From a virus (lineage: Duplodnaviria; Caudoviricetes): a stretch of DNA of 64,000 bases. The translations under genes and the position numbers were made by a program. Shown piece by piece: positions 9,953 through 58,826 of this stretch. The notes under the pieces are model-generated. The model had not been told where the DNA came from, did not search any database, and worked only from the letters and a program-made list of their open reading frames with translations. How positions within the stretch are numbered: position 1 is the first letter of the stretch; the number at the start of each line of letters is the position of its first letter. Location: IMG/VR virus record IMGVR_UViG_3300030330_004772, positions 10,686 to 74,685 of that record. One strand, 5' to 3'.

Positions 9953-9953
9953 A

Positions 9954-10836: not shown

Positions 10837-10854
10837 TTTTTATACTTTATTCAG

Positions 10855-11448: not shown

Positions 11449-11458
11449 AACAAAATAA

Positions 11459-12886: not shown

Positions 12887-12905
12887 AATTATAAAAAAAT
12901 AATAT

Positions 12906-12930
12906 ATCCCACTTAGGTGGGATTTTTTTT
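12906..12930 (+). terminator. Rho-independent terminator
   Basis: ATCCCAC-TTAG-GTGGGAT followed by a T-run. Confidence 0.85.
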
Positions 12931-28851: not shown

Positions 28852-28872
28852 TTCTTTTTATTAATAAATATC

Positions 28873-30180: not shown

Positions 30181-30181
30181 C

Positions 30182-30373
30182 TTATAACCCTTTATATCTT
30201 TTTATTATTTCTACATTACCGTCATGATATTCTTTTTCAATATCTGAAAGTTTAGTTAGTAATTTATCTATTTGTTTTTTTAGAGATTTATGTTCATTAC
30301 TAAGAACAATTAATTCTTCTTTAATTTTACTTGTTGGTAAATTACCCCATTTTATGTCTTTTACTTTTTCCAT
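30182..30373 (-). CDS. Small coiled-coil hypothetical protein
   Basis: ORF track; closely packed. Confidence 0.55.
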   Translation of the reverse strand: MEKVKDIKWGNLPTSKIKEELIVLSNEHKSLKKQIDKLLTKLSDIEKEYHDGNVEIIKRYKGL

Positions 30374-30374
30374 A

Positions 30375-30773
30375 TTAACTTATTACTCCAAATCCTGACG
30401 CTGGTGTTGTTGTTGCCCCATTTGAGAATACGGGACCACCAGCATTTGCACCTGCTGCAGTAATGTTAGTACCTGGTGGTATGGCTATTTGTACTCTAGC
30501 ATCTCTAATTAATGCTTCAACTATAACCTCTACCCTAATAGTTTCCATCATTAAATCTAAGTTATCTGCACCACTAGGTAAAGGACCAATAGGAATACCA
30601 ATATCCTTCTTTCTTTTTATTATTTCACTTGCAATATCAATTGCGCTAAGTCCAGGTTTTGTTCTCGCAGCTAATACTGCAGGTACCGGTAAAGGTTTAT
30701 TGGGAAGTGGGGGTGTAATAAACCCCTTTAAAATTCCCATAACTGTTTTTATTGCTCCCATTTCTGCCGCCAT
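30375..30773 (-). CDS. Small Pro/Gly-rich baseplate-region protein
   Basis: ORF track; position next to the spike gene. Confidence 0.55.
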   Translation of the reverse strand: MAAEMGAIKTVMGILKGFITPPLPNKPLPVPAVLAARTKPGLSAIDIASEIIKRKKDIGIPIGPLPSGADNLDLMMETIRVEVIVEALIRDARVQIAIPPGTNITAAGANAGGPVFSNGATTTPASGFGVIS

Positions 30774-30789
30774 AATTCATATTTTTTTT

Positions 30790-32430
30790 TTAATCACAAA
30801 AACGTCCTCTCTTACCTCTTTGTAAATTTACGTTATTTAATGAGTTAAGATTTAACCTATCAGTAAATCCTTGTGCGTCCCCAACAATATCACCGGCTTT
30901 GCCCAATAATTGGTTAACCTCATCTAAAGCGTCTACTAACCCACCTGGTAATAAACTTTCTAAAGATAATCTATAATTAATACCCTTTTCTTTTAATTTT
31001 TTTGCAATATAACATAAAACTATTTGTTTTAATGCATTAATTGCCATAGGTAGAAGATACTCATATATTATTTTTCTTATTATTTCTTTTAATATTTCTC
31101 CCAAAATACATTGTAAATTCTTTAAAAAACCTTTTATTCCTTCTTCATTAGGTAATGATTTTTTATTAACTAAATAAAACATTGTATTGAATAACATTAA
31201 ATTTTTAGGGGATAAAACTAATTTAGTAAGTGCTATCTGAAGTGATTTAACAAAGTTATACCAAAACTCTCCATCTGCTGCAGTTTTTTCTATATCACTT
31301 ACTTGTTCAGACGCTTCTTTTTGTAAATCTTCCATTGCAGTTGTCAATAAATCTATTTTTTCATTTATAACTCCACCCGCATTAACTAAATCGTCATTTA
31401 ATGTTTTTAGTGTATTAATTGAGACATCACTAGTTTGTTTTTTACAACACGTTTGGAATTGTATTCCACCATTTTTAATTCCATTTACCTTAGATTTAAT
31501 ATTAGTTATTTGTTCTGGTGTAAACTCATAAAAACTATCTTCTATAATAACTTCAGGATCATTTAAACCCACATTTATATAATCAGATATAGCCTCCTCA
31601 AATTCCACTTGTTTTATAAGACATTGATCAGATAAATCTACTTCTTTTGTTAATGTACCAAAAATCAAATTTATAACGTTAGGTATTACTTTGTCTGCAT
31701 CAAATAACGGGGTTAAACTATTAATATAATCATTAATAAAAGTTATAATCGATGTATTTTGGAAGGATGGATGTATTTGCATTTTAATGACTTCAGGTTT
31801 CGCGTTAGTAGTCTGTGGTACACCACCCTCAGTAAATGCAGTACTATCGTCTTCTAAGTAAGTAAAATACGCAATTTCTTGTCCTGTCACAGGATCTTTC
31901 CATATATCTGGTACTCCATTTAATTGTATTACATCCCATAAAAATACATTTAGATCATTAGATGAATTTCCATCATATCTTAATTTACCAACATCACTGT
32001 TGGGGTTCACTCCAAATAAACATTCTAAATCTATCTTAGAAACTTCTATATTAATACCAGGACCACTACCATATAATAACCAATCAGGCATTAAAGGGGA
32101 AATTTTACATGCATAACATTCTTTTAACCCTAACTTAATATTTAATGTGAGATTTTTTTCTAAGGGTCGAGTCTGTTCTACTAACCAATCTATAAGTTGC
32201 ATTCTCATTTGATCAAAGTTTATACTATTTAATAAACTTATAACATCCATTAACAACTCTACTACTGCCTGTTTTGGGTTTATGGATGGGATAGAGGGTA
32301 AGGATAAATCAATAGTAGGTAAATTATTACAAGTGATTTTTTTTAATTGAATGAGCTCCAATATTTGTTGTTTTAATTGATCTATTGCATCATCTGGTTT
32401 ACATACGGTATTTTTTAAATTTAAACTCAT
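30790..32430 (-). CDS. Hypothetical structural-region protein (546 aa)
   Basis: ORF track; same operon. Confidence 0.6.
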   Translation of the reverse strand: MSLNLKNTVCKPDDAIDQLKQQILELIQLKKITCNNLPTIDLSLPSIPSINPKQAVVELLMDVISLLNSINFDQMRMQLIDWLVEQTRPLEKNLTLNIKLGLKECYACKISPLMPDWLLYGSGPGINIEVSKIDLECLFGVNPNSDVGKLRYDGNSSNDLNVFLWDVIQLNGVPDIWKDPVTGQEIAYFTYLEDDSTAFTEGGVPQTTNAKPEVIKMQIHPSFQNTSIITFINDYINSLTPLFDADKVIPNVINLIFGTLTKEVDLSDQCLIKQVEFEEAISDYINVGLNDPEVIIEDSFYEFTPEQITNIKSKVNGIKNGGIQFQTCCKKQTSDVSINTLKTLNDDLVNAGGVINEKIDLLTTAMEDLQKEASEQVSDIEKTAADGEFWYNFVKSLQIALTKLVLSPKNLMLFNTMFYLVNKKSLPNEEGIKGFLKNLQCILGEILKEIIRKIIYEYLLPMAINALKQIVLCYIAKKLKEKGINYRLSLESLLPGGLVDALDEVNQLLGKAGDIVGDAQGFTDRLNLNSLNNVNLQRGKRGRFCD

Positions 32431-32431
32431 A

Positions 32432-32821
32432 TTAATCTAAAGTATAGTCAGTATTAGATTTAGATTTTTTTTCGTTAAATAATTCTCTTAATAAACTTTT
32501 ATCTGAATCAGTGAAGTTATTATTACTATCGTTACCAGATTTTTGTTCTGACTTATCGTCATTACCCACTATTTGTGTTTGTAATTTTGCTAACGCCAAT
32601 TTCCTATCAATAGTTGCCTCAATAATTTTTAATGTATCATTGTTGACTTTACCAATTAATGATTCATCATTTACATCTTCTATCTCTGCCCTATTTTTAC
32701 GTTCATTTAATTCTTTACGAGCACTATTCATTACGTTTACACAATCATTATATATTTCTTGCATAAATTCTTGTAAACTATCTTTATCTAAATTTATTTT
32801 AGTTTTCTTAGGTCTACCCAT
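32432..32821 (-). CDS. Hypothetical protein
   Basis: ORF track; TATTTAT at 32843-32849 on the minus strand. Confidence 0.6.
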   Translation of the reverse strand: MGRPKKTKINLDKDSLQEFMQEIYNDCVNVMNSARKELNERKNRAEIEDVNDESLIGKVNNDTLKIIEATIDRKLALAKLQTQIVGNDDKSEQKSGNDSNNNFTDSDKSLLRELFNEKKSKSNTDYTLD

Positions 32822-32866
32822 ATTAATAATGTTTTATACTATATAAATACTATTAAAGGTATTTTT

Positions 32867-33604
32867 TTAAAGTAAACCTTTATCTATTTTAAAGTTCTTA
32901 ATAGCAATATATATTTTTTTATATCTCCTCATAGATACTCGAATATCTTTTGTAGTCAATCCAGAAATTTCTCTAATATAAGAAAGTATTAAATTTTTAT
33001 TATATTTATTACCACTTTCTACTTGTTCAAAAATAGTTTCCCAATTATCTAAAACCATAATTAATGCATTACCGACTAATTTTTCATTTTCAGATATCTT
33101 ACCGTGTTCTATTTCTGCTTTTATATTTGATGATACTTCTTTGATAAATTCTTCTAATGGTGTTTTATCAACGTCTTCTAAATCGTATTGATAGTCATCC
33201 ATTTCCTCCACTGTTTTATAAACATCGTCATAACACAAATCGGATTTCATTCTTTTATCTGCTTTTAATAATTGACCTAACAAATAATTTTTACAAATCG
33301 TACCAAAATAAGAATAAGCTTTTTTACCTTCTTCCGGTCTGAACTTCTCCATTTTAGTAGCTAAAAAGGATAGTGTATCCGTATGAATATCCTCAAAAGT
33401 ATCAGACTTACGATATAATTTATAACGTCTAATGATAGACTCAATCATTTTATTTAGAGGGGCTCTAAGAAATTTATTATAAATTCTATTACGTTCATGA
33501 TAGTCATCAGAATTTAAAAAAGCAACTACGGCTTTTTCCTCTTCTGGCCCAAAATACAAATTAGTTGTTCTTTTACGACCTCTTTTTTTAGGTTCTTCAG
33601 ACAT
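32867..33604 (-). CDS. Phage sigma factor (gp55-like late sigma)
   Basis: Sigma region-2-like LNKMIESIIRRY...FEDI...TLSFL...EKFRPEEGKKAYSYFGTICKNYL. Confidence 0.7.
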   Translation of the reverse strand: MSEEPKKRGRKRTTNLYFGPEEEKAVVAFLNSDDYHERNRIYNKFLRAPLNKMIESIIRRYKLYRKSDTFEDIHTDTLSFLATKMEKFRPEEGKKAYSYFGTICKNYLLGQLLKADKRMKSDLCYDDVYKTVEEMDDYQYDLEDVDKTPLEEFIKEVSSNIKAEIEHGKISENEKLVGNALIMVLDNWETIFEQVESGNKYNKNLILSYIREISGLTTKDIRVSMRRYKKIYIAIKNFKIDKGLL

Positions 33605-34402
33605 TTATACTGTTTCTAACTCATATGTTATTTCTCTATCTTCAGTGAAAAAATATTCTTTTTTTGCTTTATTAACCCAAAATTTACTTTCTAAAACGTC
33701 AATAGTATTCTTATATTCAACAAATAAAGAACCTTCTCTATTATTTAAATGTTTATAGCCTAATTTAGGTATAACCATAACTGGTATATCTTGATATGTT
33801 AACCTTAATAAAAACTCATATGTAAAAGTCAATTTCATGTTGGTTTTTAACCCACCGCATTCTTGATATGCAGTTTTTTTAATAACCATACCATCAAAAT
33901 TAAAATTTTGCATTTTAACCAAAGTTTCATTATCTAAAAATCCCATTTCAGAAGAAACACCTTTAACCCAAACATTTTCATTAGTAAATGATAAGAAATT
34001 ACCTTTTTCATCACTTTCAAAAATTATTGGTAAGAACGCACCTACTTCAGGAAATGAGTTGATATATGTGTTGGCGGAATTTAACCATATTTTAGATAAT
34101 TCATCATCATATTCTAAAAAAGTAAAGTATTCTGATTCTACGTTATTTGCACCAAAATTTAACTGGTTTTGAAATGAGGTGTCTTTACTTTTATTCTCAA
34201 TAACTCTTATTTTATCTTTCACACCACCAAAATCAAAATCATCTAAAAAAGTTTTTAATTTTTTATCTTTTGACCTCACAATTAATATTTCAGAGGGTTC
34301 TAATGTTTGTTGTTCTACACTCAGTAATGCATTTTTTAAATATTTATCTAAATTTTTTTGTACCTTATGAATTGGTATAATTACAGTGATATTATTTGTC
34401 AT
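33605..34402 (-). CDS. Glycosyltransferase family 2 (GT-A fold)
   Basis: ITVIIPIH ... SEILIV ... NFGANNVESEYFTFLEYDDEL. Confidence 0.85.
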   Translation of the reverse strand: MTNNITVIIPIHKVQKNLDKYLKNALLSVEQQTLEPSEILIVRSKDKKLKTFLDDFDFGGVKDKIRVIENKSKDTSFQNQLNFGANNVESEYFTFLEYDDELSKIWLNSANTYINSFPEVGAFLPIIFESDEKGNFLSFTNENVWVKGVSSEMGFLDNETLVKMQNFNFDGMVIKKTAYQECGGLKTNMKLTFTYEFLLRLTYQDIPVMVIPKLGYKHLNNREGSLFVEYKNTIDVLESKFWVNKAKKEYFFTEDREITYELETV

Positions 34403-34424
34403 TTTTAATTATTTTTTTTATATA

Positions 34425-35549
34425 TTATTGGGTTACTTCTTCAGTAACTTTATTTTCTTCTCTTTTAATGATTGTTTCTAGTTCTTCAGTTCTTCTTGTA
34501 AATATTCCATTATAAACCTCTTTTAAAATACCTTTAGATTCATCTTCACTAAATTGTAATTTCATTTCTTCCATTTTTTCTATAAGATTTTGTGGGATGG
34601 AGTCCTCAATATATAAACCAACCATAGTTGCAATTAAATCAGGTATAGAATTTAAATTTGCAGTCCATACACCGTTATCATTTAAATTAAGATTACCATT
34701 TTTATCTAAATTACCCATCCACTCAGGAACCATTCTAGGAATTTTACCTATAACAGGAGTATCGCTTTTCATACACTCAATTGGAAATGTACCAAAACTA
34801 GATAATTCATCTACCCACACACCTAAAAATGACTTACTTAATTCTTTTGCAAATTCTTTTCTAGACATACCAGACATATCCCTAAACGTTACAAACCTAT
34901 ATTGTGGATATTTTTGGAAGAATACTTTAACTATTTTTAAAAGTTCTCTATTATCCCTTACACTAATACTAACTGTTGGTATTTTAGGTTTGTCACTGTT
35001 TTTAAAATATGATGGTATACCTACTGGTATAATTTCAGTATTTAAATTATTAAACACACTATTTATATATTCTTTTAATGTGTTAGAAGTGGTTATAACC
35101 TCATTTATCCCAAAATTTCCCCAACTTTCACCTATTTCTAACATCTCAAAGACATATTCATAAGACTGTAAAAATACTACTCTTTTACAAGGAAAATTAA
35201 CAGTTTGTTTCATTATACTAGCAAATGCTTCAGGTATAATTACAAAATCTTGAGGTCCTACTTGTAATTGTTGTGATTCAATAGAAACATGTGGAATTTC
35301 ACCATATTCTTCACCTAACCAATCAGTAACACCCATACCTTCTTCATTACCTTTAAGTCTATAATCATTTTTATCATGTAAAATATGTGCATTATACCCT
35401 AAATCTAGTAATGTTTTTGCGTGTTCATAAATATTAGCAACTCCTGCAGTAGGATTACCTTTAGTATCAATAGTGAAAAAGTAGATACCAAAATTTTTAT
35501 TGTTAATCTTCTCAATAGAGTCTTTTAAATTTTTAATTTTTTCTTCCAT
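34425..35549 (-). CDS. GT-B fold glycosyltransferase
   Basis: GVANIYEHAKTL; ELSSFGTFPIECMKSDTPVIG (GT4-like E-x-E region). Confidence 0.7.
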   Translation of the reverse strand: MEEKIKNLKDSIEKINNKNFGIYFFTIDTKGNPTAGVANIYEHAKTLLDLGYNAHILHDKNDYRLKGNEEGMGVTDWLGEEYGEIPHVSIESQQLQVGPQDFVIIPEAFASIMKQTVNFPCKRVVFLQSYEYVFEMLEIGESWGNFGINEVITTSNTLKEYINSVFNNLNTEIIPVGIPSYFKNSDKPKIPTVSISVRDNRELLKIVKVFFQKYPQYRFVTFRDMSGMSRKEFAKELSKSFLGVWVDELSSFGTFPIECMKSDTPVIGKIPRMVPEWMGNLDKNGNLNLNDNGVWTANLNSIPDLIATMVGLYIEDSIPQNLIEKMEEMKLQFSEDESKGILKEVYNGIFTRRTEELETIIKREENKVTEEVTQ

Positions 35550-35560
35550 TTTGTTTTTTT

Positions 35561-35875
35561 TTAAAGTTCTTTTATAATTCCTTTCATTAAAAGGGTGTTA
35601 AATGATAATTTAAATGGTATTGGTAATTCATTTAATGCCATCATTCCCATTTTATTATCTATTATCATTTCGTTAGGGGTTAACATCGTACCTATTAAAT
35701 CTCTATACATTTCATATTTAGTAACATCAATTTTTAATGCAGATAAATCATCTTTATCATCACATTCTTTTTCAACTTTTGTTTTAGTATCAACATCATA
35801 TTGAACTTCTTTCGCTAGTTTATCAATATCGAAATAAAATTCTTTTCCACCAACTTCTAATAATATATTATCCAT
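35561..35875 (-). CDS. Hypothetical protein
   Basis: ORF track. Confidence 0.6.
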   Translation of the reverse strand: MDNILLEVGGKEFYFDIDKLAKEVQYDVDTKTKVEKECDDKDDLSALKIDVTKYEMYRDLIGTMLTPNEMIIDNKMGMMALNELPIPFKLSFNTLLMKGIIKEL

Positions 35876-35924
35876 ATTTTTTTTTATTAATTTAAACTAT
35901 TATTATTATAAGTAAATATTATTT

Positions 35925-36548
35925 TTATACATCTTCAAATTCTATAGTTTCTGTATTTAATATTTTACTTAATGTGTTTTTATCTTCTAGTAATTCTTTT
36001 AAATCTACAATCGTATAATCTGATTTACAATCTTTATTATAGGTATTTATAACTTTAATAGAAACTTTATCTAAAGGTTTAGATAATAATGTTTCAGGTG
36101 AGGCAGTAATTAATACGTCTACATGTTCCCATTTATGAGAATAATCCCTAACAAATTTTATATTACTAACTTTACAAGATAGTTTGGATAAGAAAAATAA
36201 TGTTGCGGGTTTACTATTATTTAATTCTTTACTTATTATCATTGGAGTGTGTCCCATATCCTCAATTAGGTTATGTAATTGATTTAAGTGTTCTACAGAA
36301 TTTAATTTAACTTCACCAGCGTGTCCGAATATTTCTAACGATGCATCCACATACATAAAATTATTTAAGTCTTTTGTTCCACCAGTAAATTCAAAATGAT
36401 TTAATAATTCTAAATTTTTTATATCTCTTTCTATTGTTATATTTTCACCTGTTTCTTCATCAATAATAGGATAGTATTTATCATACACCGATTCAAATTT
36501 TGTTATAAAATCCCTTACAACACCGTCTATTGTTATACCTATTTTCAT
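35925..36548 (-). CDS. HAD-superfamily 5'(3')-nucleotidase-like protein with a degenerate motif I
   Basis: MKIGITIDGVVRDF versus canonical IxIDxDGV; C-terminal KVINTYN region. Confidence 0.65.
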   Translation of the reverse strand: MKIGITIDGVVRDFITKFESVYDKYYPIIDEETGENITIERDIKNLELLNHFEFTGGTKDLNNFMYVDASLEIFGHAGEVKLNSVEHLNQLHNLIEDMGHTPMIISKELNNSKPATLFFLSKLSCKVSNIKFVRDYSHKWEHVDVLITASPETLLSKPLDKVSIKVINTYNKDCKSDYTIVDLKELLEDKNTLSKILNTETIEFEDV

Positions 36549-37294
36549 TTTTCTAAATTTTCAAATACATCTTCTATTTTTTTTATTATTGGGTTTCTAA
36601 CCACATCATTAGGATTTCTAAGTTCTACACAACCAAAACCTTCTACATTTTTAAATTTTTCCAATACTATTTCTAAAGAAGAATCTTTTTTATTTCTTAT
36701 ATCTTTTTGTCTAACATCTCCCATAATAACCATTTTGGAGTTATCTCCTATTCTTGTCATTAAAGTTCTTATATTATCCATAGATATGTTTTGTGCCTCA
36801 TCAATTAGTATAATTGAATTATCGATACTTCTACCTCTAGCAAACGCTATTGGTACAATTTCTATGACACCTAACTCAATTAATTTTTCCATCCTACTTC
36901 TACCTATTAGTTTCCTAATATTATCAGTAAACGACTCCATAATTGGTGCCATTTTATCTTTTAACTCACCAGGTAAATGTCCAATTTCCTCACCTTTTAA
37001 TGCAGTAATAGATTTTACTAATACAATTCTTTTGTATTTAGGTCTAGATTTTATTAATTTAAGTGCTTCTGCACATGATAAAAATGTTTTACCGGATCCT
37101 GGTAAACCACTACAAATAGTGATTTCATTTTGTTTGATTGAATTAACTAATTTTTTTTGGTTTTCTGTTTTACATTTAATATGTACAGATATTGTCTGAA
37201 ATACTTTTTCTTCTTCTACGTTATTCCTATTAAGGAAAAACTCCATTTCTTCAATTTCTTCTTGTGAAAGTTGTTTGTTTTTTCTTCTACCCAT
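36545..37294 (-). CDS. phoH: PhoH-like ATPase
   Basis: GLPGSGKT, FARGRSIDNSIILIDEAQN, MGDVRQKD, DVVRNPII. Confidence 0.93.
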   Translation of the reverse strand: MGRRKNKQLSQEEIEEMEFFLNRNNVEEEKVFQTISVHIKCKTENQKKLVNSIKQNEITICSGLPGSGKTFLSCAEALKLIKSRPKYKRIVLVKSITALKGEEIGHLPGELKDKMAPIMESFTDNIRKLIGRSRMEKLIELGVIEIVPIAFARGRSIDNSIILIDEAQNISMDNIRTLMTRIGDNSKMVIMGDVRQKDIRNKKDSSLEIVLEKFKNVEGFGCVELRNPNDVVRNPIIKKIEDVFENLEK

Positions 37295-37404
37295 ATATCT
37301 TTTTTATGTTATTAATATATGAACAAAATTAAATAAAGTATATGGTTATTTAAAATAGTTTTATAAAATTGATCCTAGTACCAACTATATGAAAAAACTT
37401 TAAT

Positions 37405-38421
37405 TTATCTTTTGTCATATATTTTATTAATTATCTCAACAACTTTAAGTCCTTCTAATGCATTTGTTGTAATAGTTCCATTACCCCTTAAAGTATCTAC
37501 AACATTTTCAATTATATAGTGATGATTTGCAGCACTACCTTTATATTGTCCGTAATCATTGGGTGGGTTCGATGGTGGTAATGTAGGCATTTTATAATCT
37601 TTAATGTTACAATATTCAATCTCATTCATGTATTGTCCACCTACTTTAACACTACCATTACTTCCTATAATGGTTATACTACTTTCTAAGTTAGATCCCC
37701 AAACCGCAGTAGAATAATTAATACACCCCATACCACCTTCTGAAAAATCAAAAGAAACAAATCCAGAATCTTCGAAATCAGTACTTTCTTTATGTGTGAA
37801 ATCATTGAATTTTCCTTGAATATTTTCTATATCACCAAAAAGCCAATACATAATATCTATAAAATGAGAAAACTGAGTAAACAATGTGCCCCCATCTAAA
37901 TCTTGTGTTCCTTTCCAACCACCTTTTTTATAATACCTATCATCACGATTCCAATAACAATTTACTTGTACCATAAAAATATCCCCAATAATTTTATTCT
38001 CTACAATTTCTTTTAACCATACACTTGGAGGAGAATACCTATTTTGCATTACCGCAAAAATTTGTTTATGCTTTCTAAGTGCAGTATATAAGACTTTTTC
38101 TGAATCAATTTTTTTTAACCCTATTGGTTTTTCTATTACAACATGTTTATTATTTTCTAATACTTTAATTGAATGTTCTGAATGTAATCCATTAGGTGTA
38201 CATACACACACTATTTCAATCTCTGGATGATGAGATAACATTTCATCTAAATTATTATAAAAAGGTATATCTTTAAACTCATCTAAATTTAAATCTTTTT
38301 TATCTTTTATATCACAAAATGATATTAATTCACAATTTTCATTGTTTAATATCATATTACTGTGTCGTTTACCAATGTGTCCAACACCTACGACACCAAA
38401 ACTAATTTTTTTTGTTTTCAT
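37405..38421 (-). CDS. Gfo/Idh/MocA oxidoreductase, WbpB/WlbA-like NDP-sugar dehydrogenase
   Basis: GVVGVGHIGKRH, CTPNGLH, IEKP, QNRYS, WNRDDRYY, GGTLFTQFSHFID. Confidence 0.85.
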   Translation of the reverse strand: MKTKKISFGVVGVGHIGKRHSNMILNNENCELISFCDIKDKKDLNLDEFKDIPFYNNLDEMLSHHPEIEIVCVCTPNGLHSEHSIKVLENNKHVVIEKPIGLKKIDSEKVLYTALRKHKQIFAVMQNRYSPPSVWLKEIVENKIIGDIFMVQVNCYWNRDDRYYKKGGWKGTQDLDGGTLFTQFSHFIDIMYWLFGDIENIQGKFNDFTHKESTDFEDSGFVSFDFSEGGMGCINYSTAVWGSNLESSITIIGSNGSVKVGGQYMNEIEYCNIKDYKMPTLPPSNPPNDYGQYKGSAANHHYIIENVVDTLRGNGTITTNALEGLKVVEIINKIYDKR

Positions 38422-39578
38422 TTTTTTCCTCTATTTGATCTTATATTTATAAACTTTTTTGTGGTTTGTCTTTTAACTGATTTAATTTCTTGTTTTTTAA
38501 CTGGTTTAACTTCTTGTTTTTTAACTGGTTTAACTTTTGGTTTTTTAACTGATTTAACTTCTTGTTTTGGTTCTTGCTTTGAGTTAGTAATGGTTAAATC
38601 TTTTATATTTGTTACTTCATTTTTTTTTATTTTTTTTACTGATTCACTTTGTTTTTGAGGTAAAACTTTTGTAATTTTAGGTTTGATACTTTCTAAAACA
38701 TTTAAATCTTCTTTACTTTTTATTTTTTTAATTGGTGTATTAATAAAAAATTGTTTTTTTAATTTATCTATTATATGAGATTCTAAAATATCTTCTACCT
38801 TTTGAGTTGGGTTTTTAAAATATCTTTTATAATTTCCTTTTTCTTTATATAAATTTCTTCTGGTTTTTGATATTTTATTAGCTCCGTCAGTAAAAAGACA
38901 TTTTAATAATCCATTAAACCTATATCTTTTAATTTTACCTATTTTAGTGAACAACCAATTATCTACAAATTTTTTAGGCCATGGTGAACTCATATTTTTT
39001 ACTAAATTTGTTTTAGTCGCAATTAGAACACCTGTTTTAGGTATTTCATTTGTGTATGATGCAGTTACAAAAGTATTTAAATTAAAAAATAATGCCTCCC
39101 CTATTTCAAACCAATTATAACCACTTTCTAAGATAGTATGAGTTATTTCTATTCTGTTAGGTGGTGAGTAATCATCTGATGCAGTAAGTAGAAAACTACT
39201 ACCTAATGATGCGTGAGCAATTATCCACCATTTTTTAGATAAAGGTGTACGAAATTCTATTACTTTTTCAGTCTCTGAACAAATCTCTTTTTTAATTGGG
39301 ATGGGTATATAAGAAATTCTAGCACATCCCGCTTCTTTTAATCTATCACTATACGATAATATCATTTCTTTTCCTGCCATATTTGGTGTTACGTCTTCAC
39401 ATACAACTAATTCCCATATATACTGGGTTTCTTGTCTACATAAACTTTCTAATTGTAACCATATTATATCTTTGTTTTCCCATGTTGGTAGGGCAACTGT
39501 TACTTTAATATTAGAGACATATTTTTCATTCAACCACACTGTCCCTCCCCATGACCGAAGATTTTTTATATTTTTCAT
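38418..39578 (-). CDS. GT-A-like glycosyltransferase with a Lys-rich C-terminal tail
   Basis: VALPTWENK..LESLCRQET...ELVVCED, SDDY; tail with KPVKKQEV repeats. Confidence 0.65.
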   Translation of the reverse strand: MKNIKNLRSWGGTVWLNEKYVSNIKVTVALPTWENKDIIWLQLESLCRQETQYIWELVVCEDVTPNMAGKEMILSYSDRLKEAGCARISYIPIPIKKEICSETEKVIEFRTPLSKKWWIIAHASLGSSFLLTASDDYSPPNRIEITHTILESGYNWFEIGEALFFNLNTFVTASYTNEIPKTGVLIATKTNLVKNMSSPWPKKFVDNWLFTKIGKIKRYRFNGLLKCLFTDGANKISKTRRNLYKEKGNYKRYFKNPTQKVEDILESHIIDKLKKQFFINTPIKKIKSKEDLNVLESIKPKITKVLPQKQSESVKKIKKNEVTNIKDLTITNSKQEPKQEVKSVKKPKVKPVKKQEVKPVKKQEIKSVKRQTTKKFINIRSNRGKK

Positions 39579-39617
39579 ATACCCTATAAATATTTAATAT
39601 GATCATTAAAAAAAAAA

Positions 39618-40376
39618 TTATATTGTAATTTGTTTGTAAAATTTATTCTTTAATTTATCAATTAAATTTGGGGGTAAAATATCCTCTAAATTTTGTTTAG
39701 GTTCACTAAAATATGTATTTATTTTTTTTAAATATCCATTTTTTCTACCTAAAGAAATTTTATTTTGTCCGTCTGTATGTAAACCTAAAAATGGTTGCGT
39801 ATGTCTATATCTTGGATATATATTGTACTTATTTCTAATCCAAGAATCTACACCTTTTTCTGGCCAAGGACCAACTAATCTTTTCATATACGAAGTTTTA
39901 GTACCCATATATAAACCTGTATCATTGGGTTGATTATTAAATGTCGCGGAAACAAATGTATTTAAATCTAAAAATAAACCACAACTTACGTCTACCCAAT
40001 TAAAACCATCTTTTATTTTATTATGTGTAAACTCTATTCTATTAGGTGGTGAGTAATCATCAGATGAGGCAAGTAAAAAAGTACTCCCTACAGAATTATC
40101 TGCAATTATTTTCCATTTTTTAGATAGGGGAATGTGGTTTTCTAAAGATAAATAACTAATTTGTTGACATCCCGCTTCTTTTAATCTATCACTATACGAT
40201 AATATCATTTCTTCTCCTGCCATATTATTAGTTTGTTCTTCACAGACAACTAATTCCCACTTATACTGTGTTTCTTGTCTACATAAACTTTCTAATTGTA
40301 ACCATATTATATCTTTATTTTCCCATGTCGGTAAACCTACAGTTACCTCTATATTATTTTTTACCATGATAAACAA
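39618..40376 (-). CDS. GT-A-like glycosyltransferase, paralog of 38418..39578
   Basis: Long near-identical protein and DNA stretches shared with the neighbouring gene. Confidence 0.65.
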   Translation of the reverse strand: MFIMVKNNIEVTVGLPTWENKDIIWLQLESLCRQETQYKWELVVCEEQTNNMAGEEMILSYSDRLKEAGCQQISYLSLENHIPLSKKWKIIADNSVGSTFLLASSDDYSPPNRIEFTHNKIKDGFNWVDVSCGLFLDLNTFVSATFNNQPNDTGLYMGTKTSYMKRLVGPWPEKGVDSWIRNKYNIYPRYRHTQPFLGLHTDGQNKISLGRKNGYLKKINTYFSEPKQNLEDILPPNLIDKLKNKFYKQITI

Positions 40377-41112
40377 TATTACTGACTTCTTGTAATTTTT
40401 TCACAAATGGAGAATATTTACTGTTTCTTACATCATTTAATTTAGTTTTATCCCAAACCCAATTATTTCTTTCACCCTCTAAGTAATGTGTGCCGTGCCC
40501 TCTAGGTTCTCCATTATCCCAAGCTTTTCTTCTTCTTTTTAACGTTTCTGCCCTTTCTTCTTTAGTCTTAGTATTACCATAATTAATCATTATACCATTA
40601 ATGTTACCTGTTCTTTGACCAGGAAATGAAACATCGTCAGCCAAATATCTCATCTGTGGATTATATTTATGTATCATTTTAAATCTATTAACAGTCCCAT
40701 AATAAAAATAAGTGTTAAAAGGGTCAAAATTATCTCTTATTTCTCCAGTATTGAAGAAATTTACACATTCTATCCATGCTAAGTTAAAACCCTGTCTATC
40801 TAACTTTTCTAACTCATCATGTAAAGGATTTAAGGTGACAGGAAATAAATCACATCCATTATATATTGCCCAATCAGGTTTTAATCTATGTAAAGTTTTA
40901 ACTATATCGTCTTGAAGTGCTCTTAAATCAAAAGAATTGTCAGTATCAATTCTATGAGAAGGTATATTATTTTCTTGTAACCATTCCCATGTACCATCAT
41001 CCGACATATTATCAATAAAATAGGGTTCTAATTTATTTTGTCTACAATATTCTACCTTTAATGGTAAATATTCAATCTCATTCCATACTGTTAATATACA
41101 TACTACTCTCAT
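40354..41112 (-). CDS. GT2-like glycosyltransferase
   Basis: VWNEIEYLP...FIDNMSDDGTWEWL. Confidence 0.75.
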   Translation of the reverse strand: MRVVCILTVWNEIEYLPLKVEYCRQNKLEPYFIDNMSDDGTWEWLQENNIPSHRIDTDNSFDLRALQDDIVKTLHRLKPDWAIYNGCDLFPVTLNPLHDELEKLDRQGFNLAWIECVNFFNTGEIRDNFDPFNTYFYYGTVNRFKMIHKYNPQMRYLADDVSFPGQRTGNINGIMINYGNTKTKEERAETLKRRRKAWDNGEPRGHGTHYLEGERNNWVWDKTKLNDVRNSKYSPFVKKLQEVSNIVYHGKK

Positions 41113-42644
41113 TGTATTATTTTTATATGTTGTTGTAATTTGTTTACATTAGAAGACACAAAAGGAAATAATCTCTCTCTATAATCATTTTGTAACCGAT
41201 CAATTTTTTTATCATCTTTATCTCTAGATTTACTTTCATAATGATACGCCACTGCAGAATGACATAAAATATTAGTTTTATTTAATTTTAATACTTCTAA
41301 ATTTAATTCTACATCTTCAAAACATTCAGTATATGTTGGGTTAAATCCATTAACTTTACTAAATAAATTTTTATTTATTAATAAAAGTGCGCCAGTATTA
41401 CCAATGACACTAGAATAACCTGTTTTTTCATACTTGTAATATTGTTTTAATTTATCATGTGTAATCTCAAAACGAGTTAATTTATTATCTTGTACCCATT
41501 CTCTTTTGATAAACATTAACATACCATAATGTTGTAAACTATTGTCTTCGAAATGTAGTCTTGCCCCCACAGTACCTACTGTATTTTTATTCCTATTATA
41601 AACATTTACCATTTCACTAATTGCATCATTTATTAATTCAATATCATTATTACAAAATAATAATAATTCACTATCTTGATCAATATAATGATTAGCCATT
41701 TCATTATTGATTTGGGCGAAATTATAATAATCAAACTCAACTAATTCTAAAATATCTTCATTTTTAACTCTTTCCCTTATTAAATCTATGTTTTCACTAT
41801 TACTTCCTGTGTCTGCAATATAAATTTTATAATTAGTATATTGTGTTTTATTTAAAATAGAATTAATACAACCAAATAATAACTCAATATTATCTTTAGT
41901 TGGGATTATTATTGATAATTTTGGTTGTTTATTGATTTTTTTAGTGTTGTTTTCATACAATACTTTAGTTGGTAATGTTTTAGGTAAAAATTCATCGTAA
42001 ATATCAACAAATTGTTTTCTATTATTTTCCCAATCTTCGTTAGTGGGACCCGGAGACTTATGAGTAATCTTTAAATCATAAACAACCCCTACTTTAACGC
42101 CTGATAAATGATTATTGAAGGTGAAATCTAAATCATAAAAATGAAATCCTTTAATCTCTTCATTAAAATTTTTCTTTATCCTATTTTTTTCCACTACAAA
42201 AAATAACCCATCTAAATTTAATGTTTCTAAAATATCATTACTATAATTACCCGAATATTTAGACACCCATGTTTTACCATTAACTGAATGAGTAACAACA
42301 CCAACCACTTTATTTAAATGATTCCCTTCTTTATCTTGCCACCATATACCATTTTGTGGTATTTCTGTTGTACCTGCAACACCTAAAATACCAAAATCAC
42401 TATTAGTAAAATGTGTTTGTATCTTTTTACCCCATTTAGGTTTGTTAAACCATATATCATCATGACAAAAAACCACTATATCATTAGTAGAATCTTTTAA
42501 CCCTTTATTATAAATTTCAGTAAGAGAATATTCTCCATTATTAATATATTCTAATATTTCTATATTTTTTATTCCACAACTTTTTTTTAAATGTTCTTTA
42601 AAATTATGTTGCTCCTCTCTCGTAGAATATACTATACTAATCAT
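41109..42644 (-). CDS. Tandem two-domain GT-A glycosyltransferase
   Basis: Domain 1: YNKGLKDSTNDIVVFCHDDI ... FHFYDLD. Domain 2: LSIIIPTKD...IADTGS...LLFCNNDIE...FEDVELNL. Confidence 0.85.
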   Translation of the reverse strand: MISIVYSTREEQHNFKEHLKKSCGIKNIEILEYINNGEYSLTEIYNKGLKDSTNDIVVFCHDDIWFNKPKWGKKIQTHFTNSDFGILGVAGTTEIPQNGIWWQDKEGNHLNKVVGVVTHSVNGKTWVSKYSGNYSNDILETLNLDGLFFVVEKNRIKKNFNEEIKGFHFYDLDFTFNNHLSGVKVGVVYDLKITHKSPGPTNEDWENNRKQFVDIYDEFLPKTLPTKVLYENNTKKINKQPKLSIIIPTKDNIELLFGCINSILNKTQYTNYKIYIADTGSNSENIDLIRERVKNEDILELVEFDYYNFAQINNEMANHYIDQDSELLLFCNNDIELINDAISEMVNVYNRNKNTVGTVGARLHFEDNSLQHYGMLMFIKREWVQDNKLTRFEITHDKLKQYYKYEKTGYSSVIGNTGALLLINKNLFSKVNGFNPTYTECFEDVELNLEVLKLNKTNILCHSAVAYHYESKSRDKDDKKIDRLQNDYRERLFPFVSSNVNKLQQHIKIIQ

Positions 42645-42792
42645 TTTTTATCTCTTCTAGTTCCTTCTCTAAAACTTTTAACTTTTTTTTATAGTCTTCA
42701 GTCATCATATGTCCGTTATAGTCCCCCATAACAATTTCTAATTTTACTCTTTGAATTTCTTTTAATAATTCATCTAATAATCTTTTTTTCAT
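42637..42792 (-). CDS. 51-aa coiled-coil hypothetical protein (not in ORF track)
   Basis: Manual translation: MKKRLLDELLKEIQRVKLEIVMGDYNGHMMTEDYKKKLKVLEKELEEIKND*. It fills the gap between dut and the GT gene. Confidence 0.55.
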   Translation of the reverse strand: MKKRLLDELLKEIQRVKLEIVMGDYNGHMMTEDYKKKLKVLEKELEEIKND

Positions 42793-42797
42793 TTCAT

Positions 42798-43385
42798 TTA
42801 TATTTTACCAGTACTACCAAATCCAGACACCCCTCTTTCTGTGTTACTTAAATTATCTTTATTAATTAATTTTGAAAAATTAGAGTTTATTACATTAGCA
42901 ATAACACCCTGAGCAATTCTGTCTCCTGCATTAATAATATAGGGTTCGTTACTTAAATTTACTAAAATAATACCCACTTCTCCTCTATAATTAGAATCTA
43001 CAGTACCTGGTGTATTTAAAACAGTAATACCGTGTTTTAATGCCATACCCGATCTAGGTCTAACTTGTAACTCAATATTTTTAGGTAATTCAAAATACAA
43101 ACCAGTTGGGATTAATTTTCTTTCTAATGGATTAAGTGTTATTGAAGAATCTATATCTGCTCTAAAATCAAAACCACTATCGTCTACGTGCTGATATACG
43201 GGATTATCGTTTTGGGATGTGTTTTTATAATATATTTTTATAAGATTATCACCTTTTTCACTTATCTTTTCTAATTCTTTTATGGTTTCACTATAATCTA
43301 TATCTTCATTAACACCCATTTTATTTAAACCACTAATAATATCAGTCATTTTTTTTAAGTCTTCTAGTTCTTCTTTAATGTTCAT
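42798..43385 (-). CDS. dut: Trimeric dUTPase
   Basis: SGFDFRA, RPRSG, GTVDSNYRGEV, GDRIAQ, RGVSGFGSTG. Confidence 0.95.
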   Translation of the reverse strand: MNIKEELEDLKKMTDIISGLNKMGVNEDIDYSETIKELEKISEKGDNLIKIYYKNTSQNDNPVYQHVDDSGFDFRADIDSSITLNPLERKLIPTGLYFELPKNIELQVRPRSGMALKHGITVLNTPGTVDSNYRGEVGIILVNLSNEPYIINAGDRIAQGVIANVINSNFSKLINKDNLSNTERGVSGFGSTGKI

Positions 43386-43387
43386 AT

Positions 43388-43951
43388 TTATAAAGTTTTT
43401 TCTTCTATTATTGCTAATTCATTAGCTTGTTTAAGAATAGTTGATAGTGTACTACTATACCATTTAGATTGTTTATCATCTTCTGGTTTATCGTAATTTA
43501 CTATGGCCTGATATTCTTCTTCAGTTAAAGAAATCCCATATTTCATTGCATAATAAACCGATCTTTCCCCAACTCTCATTGATGTTAGTTCTTCATTAAA
43601 ATCATACATTTTTCCTTGATTATTACGATGCCATTCTGATTCACACCATTTGTAGAGAAATGTTTTACCTATTTGATGAAGAAAGCATACTTTTACTATT
43701 GATTGTGCATCTACCTCTATAGATTTAGGTAATAATTTATTAATCCCTATTGCATATTTGGTTGTTTTTAATACATGATCTATTAACCCACCAGGAAATG
43801 CATTATGTAAAGATTTCATAGTAGATGCAGGTGCAGTCAGTAAATCTTCACCTAAATACTCTAATAATTCTTTATTTAAAATTCCATATAATTCATTCTT
43901 TTCTAAAAAAGTTTGATTATTCTTATTGATTTTTTCTTTTAGTTCTATCAT
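43388..43951 (-). CDS. HD-domain-like protein (YhaM-like) with HQ in place of HD
   Basis: HNAFPGGLIDHVL ... VCFLHQIGK. Confidence 0.65.
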   Translation of the reverse strand: MIELKEKINKNNQTFLEKNELYGILNKELLEYLGEDLLTAPASTMKSLHNAFPGGLIDHVLKTTKYAIGINKLLPKSIEVDAQSIVKVCFLHQIGKTFLYKWCESEWHRNNQGKMYDFNEELTSMRVGERSVYYAMKYGISLTEEEYQAIVNYDKPEDDKQSKWYSSTLSTILKQANELAIIEEKTL

Positions 43952-43981
43952 ATTATAATATTTTTAATAAAGATAGGTATT

Positions 43982-45241
43982 TTAATTTACAACGTCAAAT
44001 ACCTCTTCTTCTTTTTTTATTATAATTTGTTTATATAATTTAGCTCTTTCTGTACAAACACTTTTCATGTCGTATTTACCATTAACTGTATTATATAAAT
44101 TTTCACCTAAAGTTTTTATCAATGAAGGATTTTCAATTAACATTTTTATATGTTTAAACCAAAACTTATGATTTTTATTTTCAGGTATAAGAATAGCGTT
44201 TCCATTTTCTAAATCCATTTCCCCACCTCTTTGATATGCATTAATAATATCAATTTGATATGGTCCTATGTCTTGTGCAATCAAAGCTTTTTTATGAAAT
44301 CCTGCCTCAATTACCTTAAGTTGTGATTTTACTTTATTAAAAGTACTATCTTTAAGTGGTGCTAATGATACATCAAATAAGTTATAATTACTAGCGTAAG
44401 AAGTTATTGGTTTAGTCCACACTCTTCTATATGGTTCATTGTTAACATTATCGTATTCTTTATTTTCAAAACGTAATAAAAAATCTTTATATTCATCACT
44501 AACAATTTTATAATTATCTGTAAATATCTTTTCATATTTATACCATACACTCTCCTCTGGTTTTATATCTCTTTGTGTTTGTTTACCAGTTTTCCTATCT
44601 ATAGTTGTCATAGTCCCTCTTAAATCATAACCACATAAAACAAATTGCACCTTATCTATAAGTCCTGCAGATTTAATATTATTAACTACGTTATTAAGGA
44701 TTTCTAAATCTTTTAAATGTGAAGAACCCCCTAACCACCCAATTCTTACTCTATCACTTTTTTCTGTATTATTTTGATATTGTTTTTCTTTTGGATTTAT
44801 TGCGTTAGGTAATACAAAAACGTTTTTATTTAATCTTGATATTTCATCAGCAAAAATCTGAGTGGTAGTAGTGATATTTCTTGCCACTTTTAAATTATGT
44901 ACAATTTTTTTATCTAAACCATTTTTTTTAATTATTTCCCATGCAGGATGGTTAGGTCCGGGAGACCAATGATCATCTAAATCCATAATAGTTTTAACAC
45001 CTAATTTATCACACCTATCTAATACTTCTTCCATTTTTTCATACGAACCTAAAGTTCTATGATAATGTATTAAATCATATTTTTTTAAAAAATTTTCATT
45101 TTCTAATTCAGGTTCATAATCTATATCTACATAAAAATCATTAGGAAAATATTCTTCTAATTTAATATGTGGAATTGTAGAACGGTAATATGATACACCA
45201 GTTCTATCACTAGGTACTACTAATACTTTAATTTTTGACAT
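43982..45241 (-). CDS. GT4-like (GT-B) glycosyltransferase
   Basis: GVSYYR, DLDDHW, VLPNAI, IGWLGGSSHLKDL, DVSLAPL...FNKVKSQLKVIEAG. Confidence 0.8.
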   Translation of the reverse strand: MSKIKVLVVPSDRTGVSYYRSTIPHIKLEEYFPNDFYVDIDYEPELENENFLKKYDLIHYHRTLGSYEKMEEVLDRCDKLGVKTIMDLDDHWSPGPNHPAWEIIKKNGLDKKIVHNLKVARNITTTTQIFADEISRLNKNVFVLPNAINPKEKQYQNNTEKSDRVRIGWLGGSSHLKDLEILNNVVNNIKSAGLIDKVQFVLCGYDLRGTMTTIDRKTGKQTQRDIKPEESVWYKYEKIFTDNYKIVSDEYKDFLLRFENKEYDNVNNEPYRRVWTKPITSYASNYNLFDVSLAPLKDSTFNKVKSQLKVIEAGFHKKALIAQDIGPYQIDIINAYQRGGEMDLENGNAILIPENKNHKFWFKHIKMLIENPSLIKTLGENLYNTVNGKYDMKSVCTERAKLYKQIIIKKEEEVFDVVN

Positions 45242-45304
45242 ACTTTTAAATTTTATTAAAATATAAGTTATTTTATTAACAAATTAAAGTTTTTAATGGT
45301 ATTA

Positions 45305-45336
45305 TTTGGTAGTTTAAAATATTTTTTGTAATTTAG
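45305..45336 (+). promoter_or_regulatory. Bacteroidota-type promoter
   Basis: TTTGGTAG(45305)...N20...TAATTTAG(45329); nearly duplicated at 45659. Confidence 0.55.
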
Positions 45337-45357
45337 TATTATAAAAATTAAATAACT

Positions 45358-45709: not shown

Positions 45710-46276
45710 ATGGGAAATTCAGAAATAACAATCAGAGTACAAAACTACAACGGTAATAACGGATTTATTAATTCATTACAGAATGGGTTAAAAAAATATG
45801 GTAAATTAACCGAAAGACAACTTTTGTCGGCAGGTAAATTTTTTACTAAACTTAATAATCCAACTCAAACACAACAACCTAAAGAGGTTAATGTGGATAT
45901 CAAAATTACTAAATTCATTGCTAAGAGAGTTGCGGAAGAGAATGAATTAGAGTTTAGACCTTTTTTAATGACTATTAGTAAGGTTTTGAAAGAGACTGAA
46001 AGAGCGTATCAAGTAGTTGGTAAACTAACTGTCTCAGATGTTTCATCTTGTAGAGTATGTGGTAGAGATTTAACGGATTGGAGATCACAGGCTACTGGTG
46101 TAGGACCAGTTTGTTCTAAAACATTAGGCATACCATATGTAAAGAATGAATTAGATGTTGCAGTTTATAAGAAACTACTTAAAATGAAAATTGATAAAAT
46201 TGGAGATTTAACTTTTTGGTTGGCAAAATCACAAATTGTGGAAGGAAGGGAAGATTTAGAAAATAGTCTAAAATAA
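45710..46276 (+). CDS. DUF6011-like zinc-finger protein
   Basis: CRVCGRDLTDWRSQATGVGPVC. Confidence 0.7.
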   Translation: MGNSEITIRVQNYNGNNGFINSLQNGLKKYGKLTERQLLSAGKFFTKLNNPTQTQQPKEVNVDIKITKFIAKRVAEENELEFRPFLMTISKVLKETERAYQVVGKLTVSDVSSCRVCGRDLTDWRSQATGVGPVCSKTLGIPYVKNELDVAVYKKLLKMKIDKIGDLTFWLAKSQIVEGREDLENSLK

Positions 46277-46305
46277 AAAAACCCTCTTCGGAGGGTTTCT
46301 TTTTA
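46275..46305. terminator. Bidirectional terminator between convergent genes
   Basis: A-run, AAACCCTC-TTCG-GAGGGTTT, T-run (UUCG tetraloop). Confidence 0.9.
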
Positions 46306-51322: not shown

Positions 51323-51324
51323 TT

Positions 51325-53175: not shown

Positions 53176-53215
53176 TAAAAATATTAACATATTTATATAA
53201 AAAAGAAAAAATAAA

Positions 53216-56752: not shown

Positions 56753-56762
56753 AATCATTATT

Positions 56763-57572: not shown

Positions 57573-57575
57573 AAT

Positions 57576-58445: not shown

Positions 58446-58499
58446 TAGATAAAAAAGATTACTTTATTTAAAAATAGTATATTTATATAAAAAAGAGAA

Positions 58500-58826
58500 A
58501 TGGAATATTTAAGTACAGGAGAACAATTAGGGACAGGTTATACAACGGTATTAAGTGCAACCACAACTACTAAAAATTTAGTTAAATCTATTCATGTTAC
58601 TAATATTAGTGGTGACACATCACTTTATTTACAATGGTATGATGACTCTAAAGGAAACACTTTATCATTAGCGCATAACGTAACAATTCCAGCTTCCTCT
58701 TCATTTCAAGTATTAGATGGTACTTTTGTTTTAGATAACGATGATTATATTCAAGCAAAATCAACAAACTTAAATAATTTAGATATTAGTATATCCTATC
58801 TTAACATTGATAATAGCGAAGGATAA
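58500..58826 (+). CDS. Small virion structural protein
   Basis: VKSIHVTN...VTIPA...FVLDNDDYIQAK; TATTTAT at 58480. Confidence 0.55.
   Translation: MEYLSTGEQLGTGYTTVLSATTTTKNLVKSIHVTNISGDTSLYLQWYDDSKGNTLSLAHNVTIPASSSFQVLDGTFVLDNDDYIQAKSTNLNNLDISISYLNIDNSEG

Follow-up and report, generated by a model that had tools for sequence, protein, structure and literature searches.

Gene content of the island

The DNA analysed here (the window) is a 64,000-nucleotide (nt) stretch of a tailed virus of the Caudoviricetes (positions 10,686 to 74,685 of IMG/VR record IMGVR_UViG_3300030330_004772), and coordinates without a contig label refer to it. The minus strand carries every long open reading frame (ORF) across 27445-45241, and a glycosyltransferase (GT) island occupies 33605-45241 of this strand. 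The island comprises 13 ORFs of at least 100 amino acids (aa), named A to M in order of increasing coordinates, plus one small ORF in the gap at 42645-42797. Seven of the 13 are GT genes, which together encode eight GT domains (six GT-A and two GT-B), and five (PhoH, dUTPase, an HD-like gene and the unassigned C and D) are not glycan genes. An earlier note on this DNA had listed seven GT genes with eight domains of both folds, together with a sugar dehydrogenase. Pfam, PHROGs, PDB/Foldseek and family profiles all support the former, while the latter is gene F, a Gfo/Idh/MocA oxidoreductase according to Pfam and to its matches with PDB entries 3q2i and 3q2k, for which a substrate can be predicted.

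Two enzymes belong to the GT-B group. M (43982-45241), the first gene of the unit, provides the sole PHROGs match among the ten island proteins searched (phrog_7162, 'glycosyltransferase', 1.3e-42). Its family profile matches GT4 enzymes and its AlphaFold2 (AF2) model (predicted local distance difference test [pLDDT] of 94.6) is a GT4-type GT-B structure (best Foldseek E-value of 5e-14) resembling GlgM, PglA, MshA and BshA. B (34425-35549) has no Pfam match. It is matched by phmmer to PDB entry 8xsg (E-value of 5.5e-6), which is also the best Foldseek match of its AF2 model (pLDDT of 82.3; E-value of 6.7e-14; template-modelling scores of 0.64/0.69; 20% identity). The second-ranked entry scores roughly a thousandfold worse, GtfA (a protein O-GlcNAc transferase) is fourth, and a fold search in BFVD returned generic viral GT-B matches only. 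Entry 8xsg is AmGGT, a soluble, retaining GT-B enzyme that extends a sugar chain. Its homologue Agt lengthens glucose chains on adhesins of Actinobacillus that are glycosylated in the cytoplasm (PMC12159676). The structural model places B among the GT-B glycosyltransferases.

The GT-A domains are distributed among five genes. A (33605-34402) is a GT2 enzyme (Pfam PF00535, 39.5 bits), and J (41109-42644) carries two domains, namely an N-domain (about residues 1-235) assigned to Glyco_tranf_2_5 (89.8 bits) and a C-domain assigned to GT2 (52.3 bits), both by Pfam. G (38418-39578) and H (39618-40376) are paralogues (58% identical) from a family that has no Pfam model of its own. We found 39 relatives of this family, three homologues carry PF00535, and the family profile matches the GT2 domain of chondroitin synthase at 6e-5. 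The true start of H is probably an ATG located three codons inside the listed TTG start. Two other candidate pairs of paralogues, G/B and H/I, were rejected. Finally, I (40354-41112) is a probable GT2-like GT-A enzyme and the weakest of the seven GT calls: its Pfam score for Glyco_tranf_2_4 (19.7 bits) lies under the 27.5 cut-off, it has no sequence match in PDB, and an Atlas feature search links it to GT2 clusters at 0.97-0.99.

G differs from the tail-less H by a C-terminal tail of about 100 aa, rich in Lys, Pro and Val, which consists of repeats and ends in KKFINIRSNRGKK. The terminal motif KKFINIRxN..K is kept in four environmental homologues, in which the number of repeats varies, and occurs in no other protein of the contig. 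This tail could bind DNA, acidic glycans or a membrane, and it thus favours no target over another.

F (37405-38421) shares its first 4 nt with the end of G. It matches 3q2i and 3q2k over the full length of these two entries (193 and 171 bits, respectively), against 42 bits for WbpB (3oa2). We take 3q2i and 3q2k to be WlbA dehydrogenases acting at position 3 of UDP-N-acetylglucosaminuronic acid (UDP-GlcNAcA), which a literature search did not confirm. Neither an aminotransferase nor an acetyltransferase, the partners of F in a WlbA pathway, was detected in the window. In other phages (introduced below), a hexapeptide acyltransferase follows F in L001, and DegT fragments occur in L002 and G002.

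The remaining genes encode a PhoH-like ATPase (E, 36545-37294; Pfam PhoH, 205 bits), a dUTPase (K, 42798-43385; Pfam, 83 bits) and a probable HD-domain phosphohydrolase (L, 43388-43951), which we treat as a lead, as it comes from Atlas look-alike clusters (0.97-0.98), in one of which 24% of the members carry PF01966. C (35561-35875, 104 aa) has no family match. D (35925-36548, 207 aa) has no Pfam or PDB match, and its N-terminus looks HAD-like by eye, with the first Asp missing. The small ORF of the 42645-42797 gap, read from the sequence on the same strand, has about 50 codons and runs into the start of J.

A conserved frame and an exchangeable cassette

Window proteins were compared by tblastn with six relatives. 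For the retrieval of loci, a search with the single protein J returned nothing, and an alignment-based search was required. The sigma-like gene immediately adjoining the end of A (32867-33604, minus strand), as well as A, B, C, D, residues 1-235 of J, K, L and M, are 45-92% identical in the six relatives. Identities in relatives reach 82-87% for the sigma-like gene, 62-69% for A (in G001-G005), 72-73% for B, 57-71% for C, 77-87% for D, 58-69% for K, 77-92% for L and 75-81% for M. These genes form a frame, in the order sigma, A (GT2), B (Agt-like GT-B), C, D, variable block, J N-domain, K (dUTPase), L (HD-like) and M (GT4). Four GT activities (A, B, the J N-domain and M) are fixed in the lineage.

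The variable block spans 6-7 kilobases (kb) between D/PhoH and the J N-domain, and is not conserved. In the window, it contains F, G, H, I and the J C-domain. Five different cassettes are found among the eight contigs that share the frame (the window and seven relatives). G001 carries two hexapeptide acyltransferases, a PIG-L deacetylase and a J gene with GT4 as its second domain. G003-G005 carry a J-GT4 fusion, a Glyco_trans_1_2 protein, a GDP-mannose 4,6-dehydratase and an epimerase/reductase. G002 carries a GT2/GT7C protein, a polysaccharide pyruvyl transferase, a DegT fragment, a sulfotransferase, a GT-D-like protein and a GT10 fucosyltransferase-like protein. Finally, L002 carries a sulfotransferase, a DegT fragment, WbqC, a GH32-like protein, a GNAT-methyltransferase fusion, a glucuronyl C5-epimerase domain, two G/H-type GTs and F. 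The tailoring genes of these last two contigs (L002:8235-14049, record IMGVR_UViG_3300008954_002723, and L108:6984-9486 for G002) include sulfotransferases, a D-glucuronyl C5-epimerase C-terminal domain, a pyruvyl transferase and a GT10-like gene, which by their predicted families make up a glycosaminoglycan-like set inside a phage.

The edges of the cassette can be located with some precision. PhoH (E), at the left edge of the variable block, is present in G001, G002 and L002 and absent in G003-G005, and, in the comparison with G001, the left breakpoint is found some 70 nt upstream of PhoH, which is 97% identical between the two. On the other side, the C-domain of J is replaced in relatives by a GT4 domain or by an unrelated domain. 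As the N-domain is conserved and the C-domain exchanged, one breakpoint is located inside gene J, at the domain boundary. The pattern is that of a cassette exchanged by recombination between conserved flanks.

Cassette genes are not confined to this lineage. A G/H-type GT directly followed by F is also found in L001 (F 83% identical) and in L002 (F 75% identical). L001 is a different phage lineage with its own GT island, as its PhoH is only 29% identical, so that cassette genes move between phage lineages, and the pair in L001 suggests a recent transfer. In L001 (positions 9941-12906; IMGVR_UViG_3300027413_000016), the G/H-type GT and F are followed by a hexapeptide acyltransferase and a PIG-L deacetylase.

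An abundant and uncultured marine lineage

Genes for a T4-type portal (255 bits), a gp23-type major capsid protein (24643-26391; 244 bits) and a large terminase are present in the window. The closest portals from cultured phages are those of Microcystis phage Mel-JY01 (41.5% identity) and Flavobacterium phage immuto (35%), which indicates that no close isolate exists, and no cultured phage was matched in a Megablast search with the entire window. By contrast, 205 IMG/VR contigs have a related portal, the best 80 of which are 73-94% identical. At 90% identity, the homologues of M form at least 7986 clusters (identities of 73-91% for the best 120), look-alikes of M occur in 175 windows from 133 genomes, and B has 1623 homologues, some of them on contigs of up to 297 kb. 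Both genes behave like core genes. The ends of G001 (198 kb) and G002 (152 kb) overlap both on the side of the island and on the opposite side, so that the two contigs together close a circular map of about 290 kb. The lineage is abundant, uncultured, T4-like and marine, with a genome of about 290 kb. The IMG/VR label of both G001 and G002 is 'provirus', even though the two contigs close a circle together.

Homologues of M include variants of unusual structure. Seven of them (P0160-P0163, P0167, P0180 and P0208; 560-815 aa) are about twice as long as M and match it in two separated stretches, which suggests inserted elements (inteins or homing-endonuclease cassettes). In G003 (G003:C1:62857-64123; L101, L102, L107:16858-18124), the M gene is divided between two overlapping frames (residues 1-359 and 354-418), which may reflect a frameshift, an assembly error or recoding. 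More distantly, the Escherichia coli Phapecoctavirus ESCO13 (NC_047770.1, 105097-108241; L109) has four adjacent GT genes, including two distant M relatives, beside a primase/helicase and a DNA polymerase. This context was considered and set aside as uninformative on function, the GT genes of ESCO13 being unstudied as far as we found.

Soluble enzymes without export genes

When scanning sense-strand ORFs of at least 50 aa for 19-residue stretches with a mean Kyte-Doolittle value of at least 1.6, we found no hydrophobic segment in the 83 island ORFs of the window and four relatives. Moreover, PF02397 (Bac_transf), PF00953 (WecA-type), PF01943 (Wzx), PF04932 (Wzy_C/ligase) and PF01061 (ABC2_membrane) had no match in the contig of the window, G001 or G002, and the same searches were positive in 9-14 of 14 control genomes. 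The earlier note had seen no flippase, polymerase or membrane-spanning GT in the window and had proposed a soluble, cytoplasmic-type pathway. Both statements hold, the first now extending to the composite map of about 290 kb and the second to the island ORFs of five phages.

A first alternative should be considered here. Soluble GTs could act at the inner membrane face on undecaprenyl-linked or lipid A-core intermediates of the host, and the priming enzyme, flippase and ligase of the host would finish the product. The changed surface would then block superinfection or prevent progeny from sticking to debris. We rate it only somewhat less likely than the reading favoured below. It is the published interpretation of the polymorphic GT clusters of jumbo cyanophages (PMC7824862; PMC12801897). 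The cassette enzymes include families usually met in the synthesis of surface polysaccharides (WlbA-like dehydrogenase, sulfotransferases, pyruvyl transferase, fucosyltransferase and C5-epimerase), the genomic context, described below, has an early or middle look that fits, and the short hydrophobic and basic end of the G tail could target the membrane. However, a priming transferase, a flippase, a polymerase/ligase and an ABC permease are all missing from the composite of about 290 kb, and frame GTs are conserved like core phage genes over thousands of environmental variants, which is unusual for a host-specific accessory trait. Furthermore, host Wzx and Wzy are usually selective for their own repeat unit, so that many phage cassettes would have to fit one host export system.

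We also searched the genome for further sugar-pathway genes, a check suggested in the earlier note. Matches to GT2 and epimerase families above cut-off were confined to this locus, which makes the island the single glycan locus of the phage. No nucleotidyltransferase (NTP_transferase) was detected in the lineage genomes searched. In the absence of such a sugar-activating enzyme, the phage relies on the nucleotide-sugar pool of its host. Similarly, no initiating enzyme of the NGT/HMW1C type (GT41) was found in G000, G001 or G002.

DNA as a possible acceptor

T4-like phages may glycosylate their DNA, and the GTs could build an oligosaccharide on a modified base of the phage DNA to evade restriction, in the manner of glucosylated hydroxymethylcytosine in T4, arabinosyl-5-hydroxycytosine in RB69 and DLP3 or the methyltransferase/TET (MT/TET) route. 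Several features are compatible with this. Phage GTs related to those of lipopolysaccharide (LPS) or teichoic acid synthesis put mono- to trisaccharides on 5-hydroxymethylcytosine (10.1101/2023.12.21.572611), the island sits among dUTPase, HD-like and PhoH genes, the histone-H1-like Lys-rich tail of G could bind DNA, and variable cassettes would suit an arms race with restriction systems.

Known routes to DNA glycans begin either with a thymidylate-synthase homologue or with a C5-methylase plus TET (PMC13326640; 10.1101/2023.12.21.572611). A PF00303 search of G001-G005 (leaving aside the 74.7-kb contig of the window itself) found one thymidylate synthase only. It is canonical, with a score of 283 bits against bacterial ThyA and with the dUMP-specifying Asn of PFNVASY conserved. 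There was no match to a C5-cytosine methylase (PF00145) or TGT in the lineage relatives, including G001 and G002, which close the map, nor to Tet_JBP (PF12851), the latter search having no positive control. The earlier note had reported that no base-hydroxymethylase was visible in the window, and this extends to the relatives that close the map of about 290 kb. In addition, dUTPase and ThyA together point to ordinary thymine, and no T4 DNA glucosyltransferase appears among the listed Foldseek matches of M or B. We know of no sulfated or pyruvylated DNA glycans. As the known routes need a base-modifying ThyA homologue or a methylase plus TET, and neither was found, we consider DNA glycosylation very improbable.

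The thymidylate synthase in question, located at G002:C1:42275-43201 (L103), is close to bacterial ThyA and carries an insertion of about 40 residues.

Promoter-like boxes and transcription of the island

The sequence ATATTTAT occurs 35 times in the window, and for 15 of these copies a start on the same strand follows at a distance of 0-35 nt, versus about 0.6 expected. As copies precede the terminase, portal and fibre-like genes, the motif is a promoter-like box of late type, judging from its placement. One copy (39586-39593, minus strand) lies upstream of G within the island.

The upstream region of M (45242-45357, minus strand) contains two blocks, AAACTTTARTTT and ACTTATATTTT, which are conserved in five phages, and no late-type box. 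No terminator-like site was found on the minus strand between M and the sigma gene, and the frame appears to be transcribed together with this gene. The latter is gp55-like, with a Pfam Sigma70_r2 score (21.1 bits) below cut-off, and the variant box GTATTTAT comes after it.

Two further attempts gave nothing usable. A Bacteroidota-type -7 box, TAATTTTG, located 29 nt before PhoH, is not conserved in G001/G002 and was dropped as evidence of timing or host. Similarly, a scan for the sigma-70 consensus returned fewer sites than in shuffled sequences and is hence uninformative. Outside the island, a ClpB/Hsp100-type chaperone gene (822 aa; 1576-4044, minus strand) lies 19 nt behind a ATATTTAT box at 4064-4071.

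Virion proteins as the most likely acceptor

Gene content, frame/cassette architecture, solubility and the absence of export and base-activation genes lead us to infer a glycan with a core and an outer part. Frame enzymes would lay down the conserved core, and cassette enzymes would add a strain-specific outer part. F would tailor a host-derived sugar for a G/H-type transferase, probably through 3-oxidation of a UDP-N-acetylhexosaminuronic acid. The glycan would be assembled in the cytoplasm, its acceptor being soluble and most likely one or more of the virion proteins of the phage itself (capsid, fibres or collagen-like fibre), with a probability that we place at roughly 0.4. Particles would then differ in their glycan coats, a situation known from chloroviruses, Megavirinae and some mycobacteriophages. 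Hints in this direction are that export genes are lacking, that the frame GTs behave like core genes, that B resembles AmGGT (a homologue of Agt) and, at rank four, GtfA, and that a late-type box precedes G-F. Moreover, strain-specific tailoring suggests that the glycan is exposed to recognition from outside. The earlier note had named Ser/Thr-rich fibres as a candidate acceptor, and fibre-like proteins are moderately rich in these residues (0.16-0.26, versus a typical 0.11).

A series of observations weighs against virion proteins as acceptor. No window protein has a mucin-like Ser/Thr tract, the highest fraction in any 40-residue stretch being 0.45, in a single fibre-like protein. The enzyme families of the cassettes (WlbA-like dehydrogenase, sulfotransferases, pyruvyl transferase and C5-epimerase, for example) are typical of cell-surface polysaccharides, and comparable clusters are interpreted in the literature as host-surface modification (PMC7824862; PMC12801897). 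Peripheral GTs acting on lipid-linked acceptors likewise lack membrane helices, and the predicted resemblance of B to Agt amounts to 20% identity within the broad GT4 fold.

Transcription adds to these points. The box upstream of G is separated from the ATG by 7 nt, versus 12-27 nt for the other 14 copies, and ATATTTAT is found in no island of the relatives. A GT gene and the dehydrogenase do lie behind a late-type box, as noted earlier (G, then F), but the argument for late expression is weakened, since the box precedes G-F only, has an odd spacing and is absent from the islands of relatives. The island also lies outside any virion operon; it shares its unit with the PhoH, dUTPase and HD-like genes and ends in the late sigma gene. 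This context looks like that of early or middle transcription. The unit is probably transcribed before the late programme or independently of it, with a possible late boost of G-F in this phage. Such timing neither proves nor refutes a virion target.

The same context bears on another alternative, in which the acceptor is a soluble molecule other than a virion protein. This could be a host protein or a non-structural phage protein (involved in take-over or anti-defence), a small molecule, or a free cytoplasmic oligosaccharide. All enzymes are soluble, as this would require, the nucleotide-metabolism genes and the early- or middle-looking context fit, and the GT4 relatives of M include the small-molecule GTs MshA, BshA and GlgM. 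However, a tailored, strain-specific glycan (with sulfate, pyruvate and fucose in relatives) is hard to explain on an intracellular target hidden from any outside agent, and seven GT genes exceed the known small-molecule pathways. We therefore regard this alternative as improbable.

Comparison with known systems

If glycosylation of virion proteins is correct, the best parallels are found in eukaryotic viruses. Chloroviruses and Megavirinae encode soluble GTs, including multi-domain enzymes (PBCV-1 A064R), and sugar-tailoring functions, have no export machinery, and combine conserved with clade-specific parts. The island is alike in all of these respects (soluble GTs, tailoring, no export genes, a conserved and a variable part). 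However, in these viruses chemical analysis has located the glycan on the capsid or fibrils, while here it is predicted from genes.

Among phages, virion O-glycosylation has been shown for the mycobacteriophages Che8, Corndog and Myrna (Freeman et al. 2023, cited in PMC12619734). According to the account given in PMC12619734, one to few GTs are encoded beside structural genes, and the C-termini of capsid and tail-tube subunits are glycosylated. GTs are phage-encoded and soluble in both cases, and decoration of the virion, shown there, is proposed here. By contrast, the island has seven GT genes in a unit with nucleotide-metabolism and sigma genes, and no obvious acceptor tract. The NGT/Agt system of Actinobacillus offers a parallel for B, which is closest to AmGGT by sequence and fold, but the identity is only 20% and G000, G001 and G002 have no GT41 initiating enzyme.

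Polymorphic GT clusters, described as 'LPS / capsular polysaccharide' clusters, are known from the T4-like jumbo cyanophages P-SSM2, S-SCSM1 and S-SCSM2R (PMC7824862, PMC12801897). These too are large aquatic T4-like phages with several paralogous GT families and tailoring of nucleotide-diphosphate (NDP) sugars, a content that varies between relatives, and a presumed acceptor. They differ by lineage and presumed host. In addition, the island has a fixed frame of four GTs plus one cassette, with a breakpoint inside a GT gene, and its lineage has no sugar-activating nucleotidyltransferase gene. Finally, the 'moraphages' are large aquatic phages (200-307 kb), mostly from freshwater, with predicted Bacteroidota hosts, chaperone genes, a sigma factor and four core GT orthogroups (PMC12619734). 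Compared by description, they resemble the present lineage in genome size, aquatic origin, chaperone and sigma genes, and in having four core GTs, versus four frame GTs here. They differ in being mostly freshwater phages, and a cassette architecture is absent from their published description (PMC12619734).

Polymorphic multi-GT clusters in large aquatic T4-like phages were thus already known (PMC7824862). The present analysis contributes the dissection into frame and cassette with a breakpoint in a fusion GT, the absence tests over a closed composite genome, the Agt-like B and the tailed G-type GT. More tentatively, a phage lineage that ranks among the most abundant of the ocean may coat its particles with a core and a swappable outer glycan, giving phage 'serotypes'. 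This would be the first such system in a T4-like phage of a Gram-negative host, with a chlorovirus-like logic, and we advance it as a proposal that may well prove wrong.

In marine metagenomes, this lineage is encountered very often. Should the glycan be located on the particle, it could influence how a large share of marine virus particles adsorb, aggregate, sink, are grazed and are recognised, and the rapid turnover of cassettes would mark a selective pressure on the virion that is undescribed for tailed phages of Gram-negative hosts. If the host surface is remodelled instead, the island would be a widespread device for superinfection exclusion or a decoy. Either way, the fixed frame provides four well-defined enzymes that are open to expression and testing, the high-confidence model of M and the Agt-like B among them.

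Surroundings of the island

The island is directly flanked by the gp55-like sigma gene at one end and by small genes of unknown function at the other, and the fibre-like genes (49022-58826) begin 3.8 kb away. None of the ten flanking proteins searched has a PHROGs match and the flanking genes have no Pfam match, so that a 'baseplate' label for them is without family support. Directly upstream of the island, the plus strand encodes a DUF6011 protein (45710-46276; Pfam, 37.7 bits), which is 96-97% identical in G003-G005 and is followed by a strong terminator-like hairpin (46279-46298). On the other side, just downstream of the sigma gene, the genes at 28873-32430 (minus strand) show 35-52% identity between relatives, versus 81-87% for their neighbours. 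Such divergence would look like the pattern expected of fast-evolving host-recognition or baseplate parts.

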